DNA of 37,026 nucleotides from the IMG/VR virus record IMGVR_UViG_3300037483_001096, positions 1-37,026 of that record; one strand, written 5' to 3'. Under the pieces are notes generated by a model. The model was given only the letters and a program-made list of their open reading frames with translations. It was not told where the DNA came from and searched no databases. The translations under genes and the position numbers were made by a program. Shown here in pieces: positions 5,804 through 35,199 of the stretch (position 1 is its first letter; the number at the start of each line of letters is the position of its first letter). The DNA is from a virus. Lineage: Duplodnaviria; Caudoviricetes.

Positions 5804-6081
5804 GCGTCCACCGCTGTCTCTCGTATCCAGCCGACCCAGGTCCGATTGTCGAATGGCACGCCGCCCCGGAACCCGAACGTATGCTTAACCACAATACGGG
5901 TGTAGGTGGTATTGATCTGGGCTTGCCGGTCCACATCAGAATAGCTGACCAGTCCGTAACCAATGCTGCGCGCGATCCAACGCCAAACAGCCTTTGGGCT
6001 CACCTGATAGGCAGGCCAGATTACGGGCGGATTGACTTCCAGCGCATGGACACAAGCGTTCATATATTCTCTAGCGCTCAT
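5800..6081 (-). CDS. Hypothetical protein
   Basis: ATGA-coupled to its neighbours. Confidence 0.6.
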   Translation of the reverse strand: MSAREYMNACVHALEVNPPVIWPAYQVSPKAVWRWIARSIGYGLVSYSDVDRQAQINTTYTRIVVKHTFGFRGGVPFDNRTWVGWIRETAVDA

Positions 6082-7732: not shown

Positions 7733-7913
7733 GGTCCTTCTCCCGTTGCTCCACGGCTGCTTCCGTTGCTTCGATAAGTTTCGTCGCCGATACCGTATAG
7801 CTAGCACCGGTAGGTAACTGAACTATTACCAATGCCGCTGTGTAACAATGCGGGAGGACCAACAACTCTTCGTCATCATCGGTCCACTCTTCGCCGTATT
7901 CAAAGATGCGCAT
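7725..7913 (-). CDS. Hypothetical protein
   Basis: TGATG-coupled start with GGAGG RBS. Confidence 0.55.
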   Translation of the reverse strand: MRIFEYGEEWTDDDEELLVLPHCYTAALVIVQLPTGASYTVSATKLIEATEAAVEQREKDHV

Positions 7914-8110
7914 CAGTTCACCTCCGCTAGTTTGGCCTGTGCTCGTTGGATGCGTAGGAGGGAAGCCGGGGTGACATATCGGTATACGTTCGGTCGCCAT
8001 GTAGCAAAAGACCTTGTACGCCAAATTTCAACCCAAATCCGGATTCCTCTTTCGTCGTACGGCTCGCTGTAGGAATGAACGTGAATTTCTTCTATCGGGT
8101 TGTAAGTCAT
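7913..8110 (-). CDS. Hypothetical protein, paralogue 2 (C-terminus TPASLLRIQRAQAKLAEVN)
   Basis: TGATG coupling; shares its C-terminus with the upstream gene. Confidence 0.65.
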   Translation of the reverse strand: MTYNPIEEIHVHSYSEPYDERGIRIWVEIWRTRSFATWRPNVYRYVTPASLLRIQRAQAKLAEVN

Positions 8111-8295
8111 CAGTTCACCCCCGCCAGCTTGGCTTGTGCTCTCTGAGCTCGACGAAACGATGACGGTGTGAGGTTGCCATAGCTCTTTTCCATCATCAGC
8201 GAAACTAGCCGTGGCCATTGGCGCCGTACAACGACATTTTGAGGTCCTTCCTCAACAACACTTATCCTAATTCCGGTGATCTTGTTGGCTGACAT
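8110..8295 (-). CDS. Hypothetical protein, paralogue 1 (C-terminus TPSSFRRAQRAQAKLAGVN)
   Basis: TGATG coupling with GGAGG RBS; shares its C-terminus with the downstream gene. Confidence 0.65.
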   Translation of the reverse strand: MSANKITGIRISVVEEGPQNVVVRRQWPRLVSLMMEKSYGNLTPSSFRRAQRAQAKLAGVN

Positions 8296-8819
8296 CACCC
8301 ACCTCCACTGGCCGATGCCAGTTCCATCAACATTTCCTCCAACCACGCGCTGTATTTGTCCCAGGCGGCGGCCCAGGCGGCGTCCCAGGCGACGGCCCTG
8401 GCGGCTCTTAACTCCGTGTCTGTAGCCTGCCCGTTCAGCCACTTGCGTTTCACTTGGATAGCATTCCAGCAGCGCTCATCCGTCACGTTCGCTGCCCGGA
8501 GTGCGTCTTCCGCCACCCGACATGCGAACTCGTGCAATGTCCTGGTGGCGTCCGCCATCCACAGCACCGTACGCTGTGTCGCGCACGCCTTGTCCGGTTC
8601 GTCCTCGAGAATTTCACCGCTCAGATGCACCCGGCACACCAGCGCACCCGGAGCATATTTGAGAGCATCAATCGCCCGTTTGCTGGCGTGCAACCCGTGG
8701 TTGCACAACTTGAGCGGCGGCTCCACTGTGTAGGTTTCACCCGCCACTGCTTGACGCCCGTCGCCATTCGCCAACTTCCCGTCGTCCGGCAGAAAGTGCC
8801 AACCCAACCAATCATTCAT
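8295..8819 (-). CDS. Conserved phage protein with CxxGLHA motif and AAW repeats
   Basis: LCNHGLHAS..DALKYA..RVHLSGEI; C-terminal VAWDAAWAAAWD. Confidence 0.75.
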   Translation of the reverse strand: MNDWLGWHFLPDDGKLANGDGRQAVAGETYTVEPPLKLCNHGLHASKRAIDALKYAPGALVCRVHLSGEILEDEPDKACATQRTVLWMADATRTLHEFACRVAEDALRAANVTDERCWNAIQVKRKWLNGQATDTELRAARAVAWDAAWAAAWDKYSAWLEEMLMELASASGGG

Positions 8820-9555
8820 TGCTATTGCCCCCGTTCAGCTTCGCGGCAACCGCGGTCAATTCCTCAGTGGTCCCCGGCAGTTTGCCTTCCCCGGCCACTA
8901 ACACCGCTTCGGCGCCGTACTGTTGCACCAGATCATTGAGGTTGATCGCCGGCTCTGTGGTTATCTGTGCGGGCGTGGGTTGTTCTTCGTTTTTGACCAC
9001 AGCCGGGGACGGACGCCATTCGGTTTCAATGACATCACCGGAGGCGTCGACGTCAGCGCCGAATTCGTCTGCGCGTTTGAGGCCGCCGAGAACGTCCGGG
9101 AACACCACATCAGCGCAAAAGCCGATTGCCCGCCATCTCAGCATGTTCGGCCCATACGACTCCCACGCACCCCCAGGCTTTACCAGACCGGCCTTCTGGG
9201 CCATTTCCATTGTGAAGGTGGTTGTATATTCGATTCCGCCGCGCCGCTTCATATAAACGGTACAGGCGTCCGTCTTGTCTTCGATCCGGATTGTTTCGAG
9301 TTCGCCGCTCTGGTAGATTAGCGCCAGAGCACCGCGAGGGATGAGTGTTGGCTTGTCCTGGATCACAGCAATGAACTCAAAGGAAGCGGTCAGGGACAGA
9401 CCTAACTCAAAACCTTTACACATGATGACAGAGGCTTGGGCTACTGTCGCCACACCAAACAGCCGGCTGTCCTTCATTGTCGGCGCCACTTCCTGGATCA
9501 TGTTCCAAATGTCAGGAGTTAGACTTTGTTGCTGAACTACCAATGCTGTACTCAT
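8812..9555 (-). CDS. RecT-like single-strand annealing recombinase
   Basis: GFELGL, VIQDKPTL, FTMEMAQKAGL..W..YGPNMLRWRA..FPDVLGGL; near the exonuclease. Confidence 0.75.
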   Translation of the reverse strand: MSTALVVQQQSLTPDIWNMIQEVAPTMKDSRLFGVATVAQASVIMCKGFELGLSLTASFEFIAVIQDKPTLIPRGALALIYQSGELETIRIEDKTDACTVYMKRRGGIEYTTTFTMEMAQKAGLVKPGGAWESYGPNMLRWRAIGFCADVVFPDVLGGLKRADEFGADVDASGDVIETEWRPSPAVVKNEEQPTPAQITTEPAINLNDLVQQYGAEAVLVAGEGKLPGTTEELTAVAAKLNGGNSNE

Positions 9556-11775: not shown

Positions 11776-11990
11776 TCCTCCAGATCAATGTCTCGTTGCA
11801 TGTCTCGGAGAATGTCGTTCTGTGCCGCCAGTTCAACGGCAATAGCCGTCAACATCTGATAGAGGCCACTTTGCGTCGGCCCTGTGGTCACAATGGTGTT
11901 GATCCACTCCCGGGAGCGGCGATTCGCCCCCTCCGCTCGCGCGATCAATTCTTTGTGGATGTAGCCTCCCTTCTTTGGCTTGCGTGCCAT
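11772..11990 (-). CDS. Hypothetical protein (MARKPKK...)
   Basis: TGATG coupling with GGAGG RBS. Confidence 0.6.
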   Translation of the reverse strand: MARKPKKGGYIHKELIARAEGANRRSREWINTIVTTGPTQSGLYQMLTAIAVELAAQNDILRDMQRDIDLEE

Positions 11991-12292
11991 CAACTGCCTC
12001 CGCCAATGTGGTAGATGGTTTCGGCGGCTTGTTGCTTGTCCCGCTGGCTGCGAATGACATGATAGGCAATTTCCCCGACGATGGAAGGGGCACCTGTGGC
12101 CACAAAAGCCAGAAACACTAGACTGGTCACTTCGACGCCGGCAAGAAAATACACTCCAACCAACGTGCCAAACACGCCACCGACCGTTAGCCATGTTGCC
12201 GGATAGTCTTCTCGAACCATCCACTTGAGATAAAACACTACACCGGCATATAACACCCCGAACAACACTAGTCCCAGATAGACAGCTACCAT
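11990..12292 (-). CDS. Membrane protein (about 3 TM segments)
   Basis: GAAAGGA RBS; hydrophobic segments. Confidence 0.7.
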   Translation of the reverse strand: MVAVYLGLVLFGVLYAGVVFYLKWMVREDYPATWLTVGGVFGTLVGVYFLAGVEVTSLVFLAFVATGAPSIVGEIAYHVIRSQRDKQQAAETIYHIGGGS

Positions 12293-12372
12293 CCGTTTTT
12301 TCCTTTCAGTGCAATTTCGGTGCATTTGTGGGCGAATTCGGCACGACGTTGTAACCTGAGATCAAGAGCGGA

Positions 12373-12408
12373 GTTTCAATCCACGCCCCCCCCTGTACGG
12401 GGAACGAC
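12373..12408 (-). CRISPR. Solitary type I-C-like CRISPR repeat (not a full array)
   Basis: Minus strand GTCGTTCCCCGTACAGGGGGGGGCGTGGATTGAAAC: GTCG start, stem-loop, GCGTGGATTGAAAC end; intergenic; no cas operon in the genome. Confidence 0.8.
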
Positions 12409-12420
12409 TTGCAACTGAAG

Positions 12421-12561
12421 TCAAGAACGGAGAACCCGAATAAAACTGAAAATGGTGAAGATGCCTACCGCACACATGGATAACCACAGCCCGAGGTCGC
12501 CACCGACGGTCAGAAGGATCAGCAGGAAGATCAGGCCGAAGCCTTCAAGGCGGCTGTTCAT
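12421..12561 (-). CDS. Small membrane protein (46 aa)
   Basis: ATGA-coupled; MNSRLEGFGLIFLLILLTVGGDLGLWLSMCAVGIFTIFSFIRVLRS. Confidence 0.55.
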   Translation of the reverse strand: MNSRLEGFGLIFLLILLTVGGDLGLWLSMCAVGIFTIFSFIRVLRS

Positions 12562-13389: not shown

Positions 13390-13418
13390 ATCTTAGCATT
13401 TTATTCTTAGACTGTCAA
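13390..13418 (-). promoter_or_regulatory. Early lytic sigma70-type promoter
   Basis: TTGACA-17 nt-TAAGAT on the minus strand. Confidence 0.8.
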
Positions 13419-13473: not shown

Positions 13474-13983
13474 ATGGATATGGGGAAAGTTGCGGCAAGA
13501 ATAACCGAAGTACGCGAAAAGTTGACCTACAACCAAGCTGGGGTAGCGAAGATTGCGGGCGTGCAACAGAAGACAATTAGCAATTGGGAGAGGGGTGTTT
13601 TACCGCAACAGTGGGAGAGTCTGATCGCTCTTGCCGAATCTGTGGAAACAACGACCGATTATCTACTTGGTCTGTCCGACGATCCATGTCCACAGAAGGG
13701 GCAGGAACTAACCGCCGATCTCCGCTCCATTGTGGACATCTGCCAGCAGCTACCGGCTGCCAGACGCGGTGATGTCCTGGCTATTGCCGAAGCAATCGCA
13801 CAGCGCGAAGCAGAACAACGAGCTTTGGACATGGTGAAAGCTGTTGGCGGGGAAGACGCTTTAGCCGAAATTGTGGGGATACTTGAACTTGCCGAGAGGG
13901 AGGGGTCTGATGCTGCCAGGGCATACATTCAGGCCAAGAGAGTGCGCCTCAAGGATGTAAACAAGATAGTCAATGATCAGTGA
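13474..13983 (+). CDS. XRE-family HTH immunity repressor (no S24 autopeptidase domain)
   Basis: YNQAGVAKIAGVQQKTISNWERG..LAESVETTTDYLLG. Confidence 0.9.
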   Translation: MDMGKVAARITEVREKLTYNQAGVAKIAGVQQKTISNWERGVLPQQWESLIALAESVETTTDYLLGLSDDPCPQKGQELTADLRSIVDICQQLPAARRGDVLAIAEAIAQREAEQRALDMVKAVGGEDALAEIVGILELAEREGSDAARAYIQAKRVRLKDVNKIVNDQ

Positions 13984-14308: not shown

Positions 14309-14362
14309 GCCCCCTTAGCTCAGAGGATAGAGCAGAGGTTTCCTAAACCTTTGGTCCCAGGT
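14309..14362 (+). tRNA. 5' fragment of tRNA-Arg(CCT), probable attP core
   Basis: GCCCCCT-TA-GCTC-AGAGGATA-GAGC-A-GAGGT-TTCCTAA-ACCTT-TGGTC-CCAGG-T; T-loop, T-stem 3' strand and acceptor 3' strand are missing; next to the integrase. Confidence 0.85.
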
Positions 14363-31930: not shown

Positions 31931-32331
31931 GATTGCCAGAACTCCCCGATTTCCTTCTCAAAGTCTTCCTGAATGGGGCCGGATAGTTGATCAACGGCGT
32001 CCTGGTCGGTCTGCCAGTGGCCCATCCAGCGCGCCTGAAACTGTTCACTCTGCACGAACGGACCATAGCTGACATTGTTGCCCGCCCTGCCTTCCAGGCC
32101 GTCACTGGTCTCCTTGATTTCCACGGGCGTCTGCGTCCACTTCTGCCCTAGCCGCTCAGAGCGGGGATCTCGTCCCCGCCGATAGCGACTGCCTGCCGGT
32201 GACGGTGGGTAGTCGGCCATGAAGCCCACGAGGCGAGCCAGGCCGCGCTGCATGGGCTTACGCAGGATGCGCATGGCCTCCAGTACTCCAACTTTTTCGA
32301 TCAACGCCTCCATGCCGGGGATGTCGATCAT
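31927..32331 (-). CDS. HK97 gp10-like neck / tail completion protein
   Basis: RYRRG..LGQKW..GNNVSYGPFVQ. Confidence 0.7.
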   Translation of the reverse strand: MIDIPGMEALIEKVGVLEAMRILRKPMQRGLARLVGFMADYPPSPAGSRYRRGRDPRSERLGQKWTQTPVEIKETSDGLEGRAGNNVSYGPFVQSEQFQARWMGHWQTDQDAVDQLSGPIQEDFEKEIGEFWQS

Positions 32332-35048
32332 GCGCCGGTCTCCCCCACCGCCACGTTAGCCAGTGGTCCACAAATGGGACATACCGCTTCATCCTGGCTA
32401 GTTCGCCAGACATAGACCCACTTGCCGTCCCGCTCCTGCAGCACCAGCCAGCACCGACAGCCGATATGAGAGTCCCGCACCGGCCGCTTCTCTGGATCCT
32501 TCGTGGCCAGACCGCTAGCCTTCCAGCCCTGCACGTTGCCTTCGGCGATGGCGACGGTCACTTCGTTGGAGGCGATAAGAGTTGCCCGTGTCAGGCCAAA
32601 GGTAGGCTCCAGTTCATCAATGAGAGACCGCAGCGGATCACCGTTCTCAATCCACTGGCCCACGGCCTGACCTACTTGCTTCTTCGTAGTCTCGTTGACC
32701 CGGGTGATGAGTTCGCCGGCGTACTGATTGGCCCAGTCCCGGGCCGCCGTGTTGGCCAGCGTCCAGTCGAAGCGCAAACCCACCCGTTCCAGTTGGCGTA
32801 CAGAAATGCGTACGCCCAGATCGGAGGATTCCACCAGCGCCTTACGCAGGGCATCCCGCACTATGCCAGCGGTTTCTTCCACCCGCCCGACGGCACCCGC
32901 CGCCTGTTCCACCGTCATCCCGGCCGGGATGACCACATCCAACTGGGCCTGCAGGGCCTGTTCGATCTCAGCCTGGATCTTGCGTTCCAGGTTCATGCGC
33001 TCTTGTTGCTCGGCTTCGCCGTCATCCGGATCGAGCTGCAGGGTCATGACTTTAGTTGGCGCTTTGGCCGGGAAGTGCTCCTGGAGGATGGCCAGCTTCT
33101 CAACGTCGGAGAGAACAGCGCTCTCGAATTGGCCGGGATCCGGTTGTTCCCGACGCTTGCACCAGCGCTTGAACGTCTCGATCTCAGCCGCCTTGACGGC
33201 CACCGGATCCTGCAACGGGTAGGCCCGATAATCACCGGCCCAAGCCAGGGTCACGGCGTCGAAGCGCACATCAATGGGCGGCACGGAAATGACCGGTGTG
33301 GATGCCTCGGCCGGTACGTAGCCCAGGGTGATGTGGGGTGTGAACCCATGCACGCTGGGCGAACTTAGCCCCTGCTCCGCCAGGGCCGCCAGCAAATCCT
33401 CCCGCCAGCGCTGAATCTGGTAAGAGTCGAAAGAGACGTAGACGGCCTGGGCGCCGGTGTCCTCAACGCTGTTGAAGCGGCCCAGGCCGCTGAGTTGCCC
33501 CACAACCGGCGGCATCGTACTGGCGAAATTGACGACTGCCTCTTCCAGCGCCATCCTGTCGTCGATGCCCAATTCCGTACTGTCCCCCAAATAGGCCATG
33601 GTCAGGTGCAGTTCGTTGGCCGGCGTCGGTGCAGAGTTGATGGGCAATGCTCCCTGCATGCCCACCAGTTCGGCCCGCACATCCGGCGGCATGAAAAAGG
33701 CCACCATGACGCCGGTCTGGGCCTTCAGGGCCGCCGCTTTCAGGGCCGCCTTGGCCGGTTCCTGGGCCGCTACGGTGCTTTCCGCTACCGTGGTTGGCTG
33801 GATATCATCGACGGGCGCTGCGGCCATCTGGGCCGTTCCTGAGGGCGTGGCGCCGGCTTTGGTGACTTCCTCCACCAACAGGCTCCCCCGCTCATCACCC
33901 AAACCGTCATCGCCGTAGTACTGCTTGCGTGTCTCATCCACAGTGTGGACACGAGCAAATGCCTCCTGCTCCTGCAACTCGAGTTGACGGTCCGTTTCCC
34001 GGATATCGTCGAACTCTGCCGTGAGGTTGGGGCCGTAGGCGGGCAGCAGATCGTTGCTGATCTTCTCCGCTATACTGACCATGCGCGGCCACACGGCCAG
34101 CTCCGTGAAGGTCTTCTTGCCGGTCACCGAGTTGGCTTCGGTAGCGTTGACGTCGATCATCGACGACAGCCCAGGCGCAAAGACGGCAAAAATCTCCTCC
34201 TTGTTGAAACGCCTGGCCTCCAGGAACTCCATATCCTTCTGGGTCATGGCCATGCTCACCCATTCCACGCCACCCTTGCCCACGTTGCGCAGCATCATCA
34301 AATTACGGCGCACACCGCCTTGTTCTTCCTTGACATCGGCTTTTAGCTTTTTCCAGTCACTATCGCCGATGGGATCCGCAAAGGCCAGGGCACCAGGCGC
34401 TTTGGCATTATCTTTGTCGAAAAAGTTGGTGTTCCACTGCTGCATAGCCATGTCACCCGTAGCCACCGTAGCCAGAGGTTCGACGGACGACAGACCCACG
34501 TAATTGTTGAGCGGATGAAAACGCCGAAAGTGGACGATCTCCCACGGTTCCAGCGGGATCTCGGTGCCGTCGCCGGGATCGTACAGGTAGCCTCGCAGAT
34601 AGAGACGGCCGTCGGGTACCGGGCGCAAGCGATACGAGGGGATGACCCACAGCTCCGAAGGCGGCACGTCCGGCCGCGTGCGGTTCAGCCACCAGTAGCC
34701 GTTGCCGGTCAGGCCAACGTGGCTAAACGTGGCCTCCAGGAACTCAAAGCGGGACATAAGCGGGTTGGGCCGGCGCAGCAGCTGCTCGAACGGATGGTTG
34801 GGGATGTCCACAGCCTCTTCCCCCTCCAACTGCTTGACGTTCAGGGCCGCAATGGCCGCCGTCTGGGCCACCATACTGACGGCGATGTGCACCCAGGACA
34901 GGCGCTGATACAACTCGAGTTGGGCGTGGGGCAGCCAGGTCTCGGGCACGCTGAAACGTTCAGCGGCGCCTGTGGCCTGCAACCAGGCCGGCACATTATC
35001 CACAACCGCCTTGGCGCTCCTGGCCAGCAATCGGTTCAGGTATCCCAT
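32328..35048 (-). CDS. Portal protein fused to a 2H phosphodiesterase and a MuF (minor head) domain
   Basis: HK97-type portal (LLRRPNPLMSRFEF, EIVHFR, GLSSVE); HLT and HIT 2H motifs; MuF-like ITRVNETTK..RATLIASNE and Cys motifs; one uninterrupted ORF. Confidence 0.88.
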   Translation of the reverse strand: MGYLNRLLARSAKAVVDNVPAWLQATGAAERFSVPETWLPHAQLELYQRLSWVHIAVSMVAQTAAIAALNVKQLEGEEAVDIPNHPFEQLLRRPNPLMSRFEFLEATFSHVGLTGNGYWWLNRTRPDVPPSELWVIPSYRLRPVPDGRLYLRGYLYDPGDGTEIPLEPWEIVHFRRFHPLNNYVGLSSVEPLATVATGDMAMQQWNTNFFDKDNAKAPGALAFADPIGDSDWKKLKADVKEEQGGVRRNLMMLRNVGKGGVEWVSMAMTQKDMEFLEARRFNKEEIFAVFAPGLSSMIDVNATEANSVTGKKTFTELAVWPRMVSIAEKISNDLLPAYGPNLTAEFDDIRETDRQLELQEQEAFARVHTVDETRKQYYGDDGLGDERGSLLVEEVTKAGATPSGTAQMAAAPVDDIQPTTVAESTVAAQEPAKAALKAAALKAQTGVMVAFFMPPDVRAELVGMQGALPINSAPTPANELHLTMAYLGDSTELGIDDRMALEEAVVNFASTMPPVVGQLSGLGRFNSVEDTGAQAVYVSFDSYQIQRWREDLLAALAEQGLSSPSVHGFTPHITLGYVPAEASTPVISVPPIDVRFDAVTLAWAGDYRAYPLQDPVAVKAAEIETFKRWCKRREQPDPGQFESAVLSDVEKLAILQEHFPAKAPTKVMTLQLDPDDGEAEQQERMNLERKIQAEIEQALQAQLDVVIPAGMTVEQAAGAVGRVEETAGIVRDALRKALVESSDLGVRISVRQLERVGLRFDWTLANTAARDWANQYAGELITRVNETTKKQVGQAVGQWIENGDPLRSLIDELEPTFGLTRATLIASNEVTVAIAEGNVQGWKASGLATKDPEKRPVRDSHIGCRCWLVLQERDGKWVYVWRTSQDEAVCPICGPLANVAVGETGA

Positions 35049-35049
35049 T

Positions 35050-35199
35050 TCAGTGCGTTGCCCCCAACAGGCCCAGGACCAGCAGGCCCAGGCCGGCGAC
35101 AATGAGTGCGGCCGGCAGACTGACCATGGCCACACCTATCACCAGCAGCACGAACCCGACCGCCGCTATCCAGTCGTTTCCGTCCAGATGCGCCATCAT
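35050..35199 (-). CDS. Small membrane protein between terL and portal (49 aa)
   Basis: ATGA overlap with the terL stop; two hydrophobic segments. Confidence 0.65.
   Translation of the reverse strand: MMAHLDGNDWIAAVGFVLLVIGVAMVSLPAALIVAGLGLLVLGLLGATH

Follow-up and report, generated by a model that had tools for sequence, protein, structure and literature searches.

A lone type I-C-like CRISPR repeat in a temperate phage sits within a PAM-anchored duplication of a phage gene end and may be a captured host repeat-spacer unit

Several kinds of CRISPR-derived elements have been described in viruses. Solitary repeat units such as RacrIC1 (Camara-Wilpert et al., 2023; PMC10651486) comprise, as described there, one intergenic I-C-like repeat without cas genes that is co-transcribed with phage genes. 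Viral mini-arrays (Faure, 2019 and Medvedeva, 2019, as cited in PMC7099407 and PMC11656645) are said in these sources to carry a guide against the allele of a relative and to match their carrier imperfectly, and an origin by recombination has been proposed for them. CreR/CreA and phage Cracr RNAs (10.1101/2024.10.29.618823; 10.1101/2023.03.03.530964) are presented as having a good first repeat, a short or partly matching guide and possibly a decayed second repeat. Recombination between a host spacer and a phage genome has also been reported (Varble et al., 2019, as cited in 10.1101/2020.10.09.333658 and PMC10434264), and the citing papers refer to it for the transduction of CRISPR loci and not for a single repeat left in a viable phage. 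How phages acquire lone repeats, be it Racrs or mini-arrays, is left open in the literature surveyed. The locus described here has, or is proposed to have, features of these systems, together with a duplication around its repeat that offers a testable route of acquisition, namely capture at a targeted protospacer.

The window, by which we mean the whole stretch of DNA analysed (37,026 nt), is the complete virus record IMGVR_UViG_3300037483_001096 with direct terminal repeats, and its gene content (integrase, repressor, RecT-like protein, exonuclease, primase, terminase and portal) is that of a temperate phage. The coordinates of the main features are given in Table 1. The predicted promoter points into the minus-strand early operon and would transcribe the repeat in the orientation in which it is processed. 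The tRNA-Arg(CCT) fragment is likely the attP site, restoring the 5' part of the tRNA upon integration, and it was the only feature returned by an Rfam search at E ≤ 10 over positions 10-15 kb of the window. Other features of the genome are a portal protein that is joined to RNA-ligase-like and head-morphogenesis domains (32328-35135, minus strand), a 71-nt inverted repeat (943-1013 and 1094-1164, 79% complementary) directly after the primase gene that is possibly an origin, and two similar 64-nt segments (7911-7974 and 8108-8171) at the ends of two small adjacent ORFs.

Table 1. Position and strand of the features discussed in the text, in window coordinates.
Feature	Position	Strand	Remarks
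RecT-like annealing protein	8812..9555	-	context gene
Downstream 100-aa membrane protein	11990..12292	-	syntenic homologs without repeat in L081 and L086
Second-repeat candidate, heavily decayed	12303..12336	-	18/34; overlaps ribosome-binding site
Guide-side copy	12337..12372	-	25 nt like PAM-side copy, then GTCGT; 36 nt if the second-repeat candidate is real
Type I-C-like single repeat, 36 nt	12373..12408	-	loop enlarged, stem and 3' handle kept; sequence and fold
PAM-side copy, 23 nt	12409..12431	-	first 11 nt coding; sequence comparison
46-aa hydrophobic ORF	12421..12561	-	start overlaps stop of preceding gene; putative gene
TTC, best type I-C PAM	12432..12434	-	PAM ranking as listed in PMC5602111
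Sigma-70-like promoter of early operon	13390..13418	-	10/12 consensus; consensus match only
Repressor-like gene	13474..13983	+	context gene
tRNA-Arg(CCT), 5' 54 nt	14309..14362	+	just before integrase

On the minus strand, the 25-mer directly behind the repeat (12348-12372) agrees with the sequence directly ahead of it (12409-12431) at 14 of the first 17 positions, with mismatches at positions 5, 12 and 13, and the TTC stands in register with the upstream copy. Both the match and the reading of TTC as a type I-C PAM had been put forward in an earlier note on this DNA, and both are borne out. No other site on either strand of the whole 37-kb genome reaches 13 of 17 matches to the 25-mer, and a match of this quality is expected by chance 0.09 times genome-wide and about 1e-4 times within 100 nt. 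The 36-nt repeat is single-copy in the genome, and its fold is a hairpin whose stem has 8 bp and whose 3' tail measures 11 nt (-13.9 kcal/mol, z -1.76). As in solitary repeat units, it is intergenic, it has the fold of its cognate repeat and it has no partial copy of more than 70% identity within 100 bp, and in its structure the element fits that class. It departs from the solitary repeat units in that a phage gene end, anchored at a PAM, is duplicated around it; the sections consulted of PMC10651486 and of its supplement 3 describe neither such flanks nor an origin, with no flank columns in the latter. Positions 12368-12518 (151 nt) recur without a difference in a second sediment run, X2, and among the matches listed from the contigs of runs X1 and X2 there was no other allele and no host spacer.

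The 25-mer is followed by GTCGT, which the earlier note took for a degenerate repeat start. The motif is indeed present, and it is better read as microhomology to the start of the first repeat than as the beginning of a second one. A second repeat may nevertheless exist 36 nt after the first. The weak candidate at 12303-12336 agrees with the best of eight host repeats at 18 of 34 positions, a score equalled or exceeded at 0.17% of genome positions, and 12303-12347 forms no stable hairpin (z -0.18); the 3' end of the guide has no capping hairpin here. If the candidate were a repeat, the spacer would be 36 nt long, and 304 of 332 host spacers measure 33-36 nt. Judged by this candidate, the spacer is not enclosed by two host-like repeats as in the inter-virus mini-arrays, from which the locus also differs in having at most one good repeat, a guide made of native phage DNA that runs into the next gene, and an imperfect self-match that abuts the repeat. 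It differs from CreR and Cracr RNAs in matching the end of one of the phage's own genes, with no target found in a host cas promoter.

The first 42 nt of the tRNA-Arg fragment are identical in one of 401 genomes of the Chloroflexota, the only phylum compared. In the family of this genome (G040), 6 of 151 genomes have arrays with 31-34-nt repeats of the window's repeat family, and a genome of the likely host class (G377) has an array of the same repeat family together with a cas3c-cas5c-cas8c-cas7c operon (type I-C). From these observations the host is likely a bacterium with a type I-C CRISPR system, of a class that we take to be the Anaerolineae. Relatives of the ERCC4-like protein of the phage were found at 41 viral loci, and two Chloroflexota MAGs were among the best genome matches. 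The window repeat belongs to the same family as array repeats of 33-34 nt in the likely host class, and its 3' 19 nt are identical in arrays of the likely host family; it agrees with host repeats at 25 of 34 positions at best. The exact window repeat was not found in any array searched, a search of genome contigs for a 35-37-nt form of it found none, and none of the 332 host spacers matched the phage at up to seven mismatches.

The upstream sequence is a PAM-flanked copy, as the earlier note had stated, with the correction that it is largely coding: the last codons and the stop of the 46-aa ORF lie inside it, and the PAM and the first 11 nt are part of the reading frame. The guide-side copy encodes the same residues and the same stop, and the mismatch at seed position 5, which had been noted before and is real, is a synonymous change in an Arg codon. 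The 46-aa ORF has no Pfam or PADLOC match, the 100-aa membrane protein has no match at 0.9 or above in the ESM Atlas, and searches with family profiles, which contained no Acr library, gave no match that would mark the proteins adjoining the repeat as anti-CRISPRs. In the syntenic relative L081 a small hydrophobic ORF precedes the same membrane gene and there is no repeat, and in L086 the membrane gene is likewise present and the repeat absent. In the stretches examined of 47 related loci there was no intact I-C repeat and one weak look-alike (L058).

No homologous element was found in viral contigs either with the exact repeat type or with the downstream 100-aa protein as query, none of 41 loci recovered by handle and spacer had the layout of the window, GenBank phages gave no match to the element, and two metagenome matches were due to chance, with no repeat there. 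Because no homolog of the element was available, we sought the same layout around other viral I-C repeats. Four scans yielded 156 other distinct viral I-C lone or first repeats (window excluded), after repeats inside arrays, duplicates, repeats with flanks under about 95-100 nt and five with a mis-called repeat start had been left out; in the two broad scans, 120 of about 210 and 120 of about 370 stretches were taken in. Repeats with a duplication score of at least 9 within 90 nt upstream were counted as high scorers.

High scorers made up 9 of the 156 repeats, as compared to 9 of 1500 cross-pairs (Fisher p=1e-5); the opposite strand gave 0 of 156 and the downstream side 3 of 151. Five came from the first set of 106 and four from 50 new units in a later scan; in a long-repeat scan none of 37 new units reached 11 of 14. 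TTC, TTT, CTT or CTC, the four strongest I-C interference PAMs listed in PMC5602111, stands in exact register in six of the nine and within one base in eight, against a background of 7.7%, and one-base slips are known (PMC5602111). L333 is the one high scorer without an I-C PAM. Short exact duplications (4-7 nt with microhomology) followed TTC only, out of all 64 trinucleotides (L341, L352 and L404); L560 can be added as a weaker case with TTC. Counted by score or by short exact duplication, a PAM-anchored duplication surrounds about 8% of the viral I-C repeats that are lone or first (12/156); across all cases the duplications measure 3 to 46 nt. The match and TTC PAM at the window are not due to chance, and the same layout recurs in unrelated viruses.

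At five loci including the window, 11 of 13 coding differences between the two copies fall at third codon positions (p=2e-4 for an expectation of 1/3 and 4e-3 for 0.45), and at the five loci with a gene-end duplication (window, L290, L379, L606 and L296) the stop is present in both copies. Both copies therefore look like working alleles. In none of the 13 cases does TTC accompany a perfect match over the full length. All 12 cases read by eye have the repeat in sense orientation; viral repeats without duplication also show a sense bias (49 sense-only, 23 antisense-only and 35 mixed or uncalled of 107, from a noisy caller). Stem pairing and the 3' handle, as folded, are kept in 12 of the 13 cases, L290 being the exception. 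Taken together, orientation and kept stems suggest from sequence that an RNA is made and processed.

Individual examples are informative as to how the layout might have arisen. In L600 a repeat with a 34-35-nt near-perfect duplication splits an IS3 transposase between its HTH_21 and rve domains, which indicates that the repeat entered DNA that was already there, next to a PAM, and that a spacer's length was duplicated. What is duplicated in L352 is the overlap between the stop of one gene and the start of another, and in L322, L404, L341, L547 and L590 the far copy extends into the ribosome-binding site of the next gene. The 46-nt duplication in L290 is longer than a spacer and requires an extra step. 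Beyond the end of the PAM-side copy, the far copy often continues with bases that resemble the repeat start (5 nt in the window, 3 in L352, a second repeat in L290, 1 nt in L341 and in L404, none in L296). The other examples are at unrelated gene junctions, involving what we take, partly from reading of the proteins, to be a holin-like gene, a terminase, a recombination-gene pair and an IS3 element. Only two loci give evidence of an empty allele, L600 through protein homology and L352 through the gene overlap, with none for the window, and neither for the window nor for any of the gene-junction cases was a sibling allele without the repeat found.

We propose that the locus originated by recombination of a repeat-spacer unit from the host into the phage protospacer to which the spacer corresponds, an origin that we regard as likely. 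The host would have acquired its spacer from a relative of this phage, at a TTC site, and the repeat-spacer unit, presumably freed as a circle upon spacer loss, would then have recombined with the phage protospacer. Spacer loss through recombination between repeats is documented in PMC5602111, spacer-protospacer recombination is attributed to Varble (2019) in 10.1101/2020.10.09.333658, and a recombinational route to phage mini-arrays is proposed in PMC7099407; in the present phage the RecT-like protein could favour recombination over short homologies. The initial product would be PAM-spacer-repeat-spacer at full spacer length, much as in L600, and survivors would be found mainly at gene junctions or in dispensable DNA. 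At junctions the PAM-side copy would retain the upstream stop codon and the far copy the downstream ribosome-binding site. The PAM-side copy would later be shortened or silently altered, in the window probably by deletion between two GTCGT motifs, so that the phage does not cut itself. The earlier note had mentioned a duplication made upon insertion of the repeat as a side option, and it is among the best-fitting explanations. Off-target integration of a repeat-sized piece by Cas1-Cas2 was also considered and is rated low, as it leaves the PAM register and the exact repeat ends unexplained.

Host Cas5c would cleave the early transcript at the hairpin, and the product would be loaded as a guide. 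By construction this guide matches the uninterrupted allele, and thus the most direct function would be the exclusion of siblings that lack the repeat. If the origin is as proposed, the chances that the RNA guides host Cascade against such siblings are about even, and those of the complete explanation, capture into the protospacer plus a guide against siblings with the uninterrupted site, are slightly below even. Targeting of a sibling phage was likewise a side option of the earlier note and is among the best-fitting readings; since no repeat-less sibling was found, the competitor is a putative target. Other points that weigh against the complete explanation are the failure to find a matching host spacer or the exact repeat in an array, the lack of an I-C PAM in L333, the empty yield of the long-repeat scan, the sense bias of repeats without duplication, the length of the L290 duplication and the uncapped 3' end of the guide.

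Other functions have to be weighed against this one. With the same capture origin, the repeat might have been kept as an RNA decoy of the Racr type that soaks up Cas5c and Cas7, the flanking match being only a scar. A lone, intergenic, sense-oriented repeat with an intact stem is what such a decoy would look like, type I-C is inhibited by RacrIC1 according to PMC10651486, and most viral I-C lone repeats (147 of 156) score below 9 and have no duplication. A decoy alone, however, does not account for the guide-side stop and the mainly silent differences, unless these differences predate capture, and the adjoining proteins gave no anti-CRISPR-marking family match; we consider it rather unlikely. 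It is also conceivable that capture split a targeted protospacer, left the full copy behind the repeat end without a PAM, and so allowed escape from one host spacer, the element now being inert. The position of L600 in a broken IS3 gene is consistent with such a neutral scar, as are the enlarged loop of the window repeat, its distance from host repeats and the failure to find a homolog, but the retention of stem and handle and the uniform sense orientation argue against it, and we judge it improbable.

The earlier note had favoured a circuit in which guide-loaded Cascade binds the adjacent TTC site without cutting, blocks transcription of the phage's own and downstream early genes, senses host CRISPR and feeds this into the lysis/lysogeny choice. 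A PAM is present, 10 of the first 11 positions match, and L606, L547 and L590 have an intact seed of 11-20 nt, as in CreR-like guides. Polymerase would also reach the PAM-proximal side first, which according to PMC9758054 is the blocking side for dCas9 and dCas12a, but this geometry, plausible as it is, is forced by the layout and is not independent evidence. Against the circuit, the target is the end of a gene about 960 nt from the promoter, and related phages have no repeat at this junction. The seed of the window is broken at position 5, the site is no promoter, and the other cases are at junctions that share no function, one of them in an IS element, which makes a lysis/lysogeny sensor unlikely. 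We found no positive support for a purpose-built roadblock, and a self-roadblock seems to us improbable. Still less credible, indeed very improbable, is a guide of the Cracr type that acts on the promoter of a host cas gene or of creT and silences it, with the upstream match as a paralogous spacer. A good repeat, a short spacer and a decayed second repeat correspond to the crlRNA layout described in 10.1101/2023.03.03.530964, and I-C Cracrs exist according to 10.1101/2024.10.29.618823. However, the upstream copy is coding with no repeat before it, and 18 I-C loci (259,612 bases) contained no TTC-flanked site with at least 10 of the first 12 positions matching and five weak 9-of-11 sites. Among 151 genomes of the likely host order there were 31 one-mismatch matches, and none of the 30 loci viewed had TTC or a repeat nearby. 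The comparison of the spacer with host cas promoters that the earlier note had envisaged gave nothing convincing in these loci and genomes; the actual host was not found.

What sets this locus apart from the known solitary repeat class is the PAM-anchored duplication around its lone repeat. No description of such a duplication was found in the literature searched (including PMC3519859), although Faure (2019) and Varble (2019) may cover it. It implies that the sequence following a 'solitary' repeat can serve directly as a guide against the allele that lacks the repeat, and this would connect decoys, exclusion between phages and homing.

Phage homing endonucleases are encoded by elements that adjoin their target site, and their own allele is shielded by silent changes. 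By analogy, a 32-39-bp repeat alone, once it lies at the boundary of PAM and protospacer, could be an RNA-guided homing element, in which native phage DNA serves as the guide, host Cascade-Cas3 destroys repeat-less siblings and phage recombinases copy the repeat in. This would amount to a gene-less natural CRISPR gene drive, possibly self-limited by Cascade at the adjacent site. Unlike the homing endonucleases, no protein is encoded and the nuclease would be that of the host, and homing is a conjecture that we hold to be unlikely.

The surveyed viruses provide additional observations on lone repeats. A circular phage (L634, G932) has an IS3 transposase (866-2132) that is split by a repeat with a duplication and has a further stop codon. 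The 57-kb virus G929 has five I-C-like repeats (at 6052, 6117, 12694, 13356 and 51723), which represent a two-repeat mini-array and three lone copies, with a TTC duplication at only one. Three related viral contigs (L333, L454 and L455) have a 36-nt repeat very like that of the window at a gene junction, with a weak upstream match and no I-C PAM. Many of the viral I-C lone repeats (L287, L288, L319, L328, L341, L404 and L590) have a start codon no more than about 35 nt away, where a loaded Cascade would, judging from these positions, cover the ribosome-binding site. Finally, L252 (G017:C85, 3398-5953) is an I-C cas operon whose own 37-nt repeat recurs within it as three diverged single copies, which stand ahead of the cas5-, the cas8- and the cas7-like start, respectively; the first is preceded by a copy of the array leader end, and these repeats are possible sites of cas mRNA cleavage by Cas5c or possible regulatory guides.
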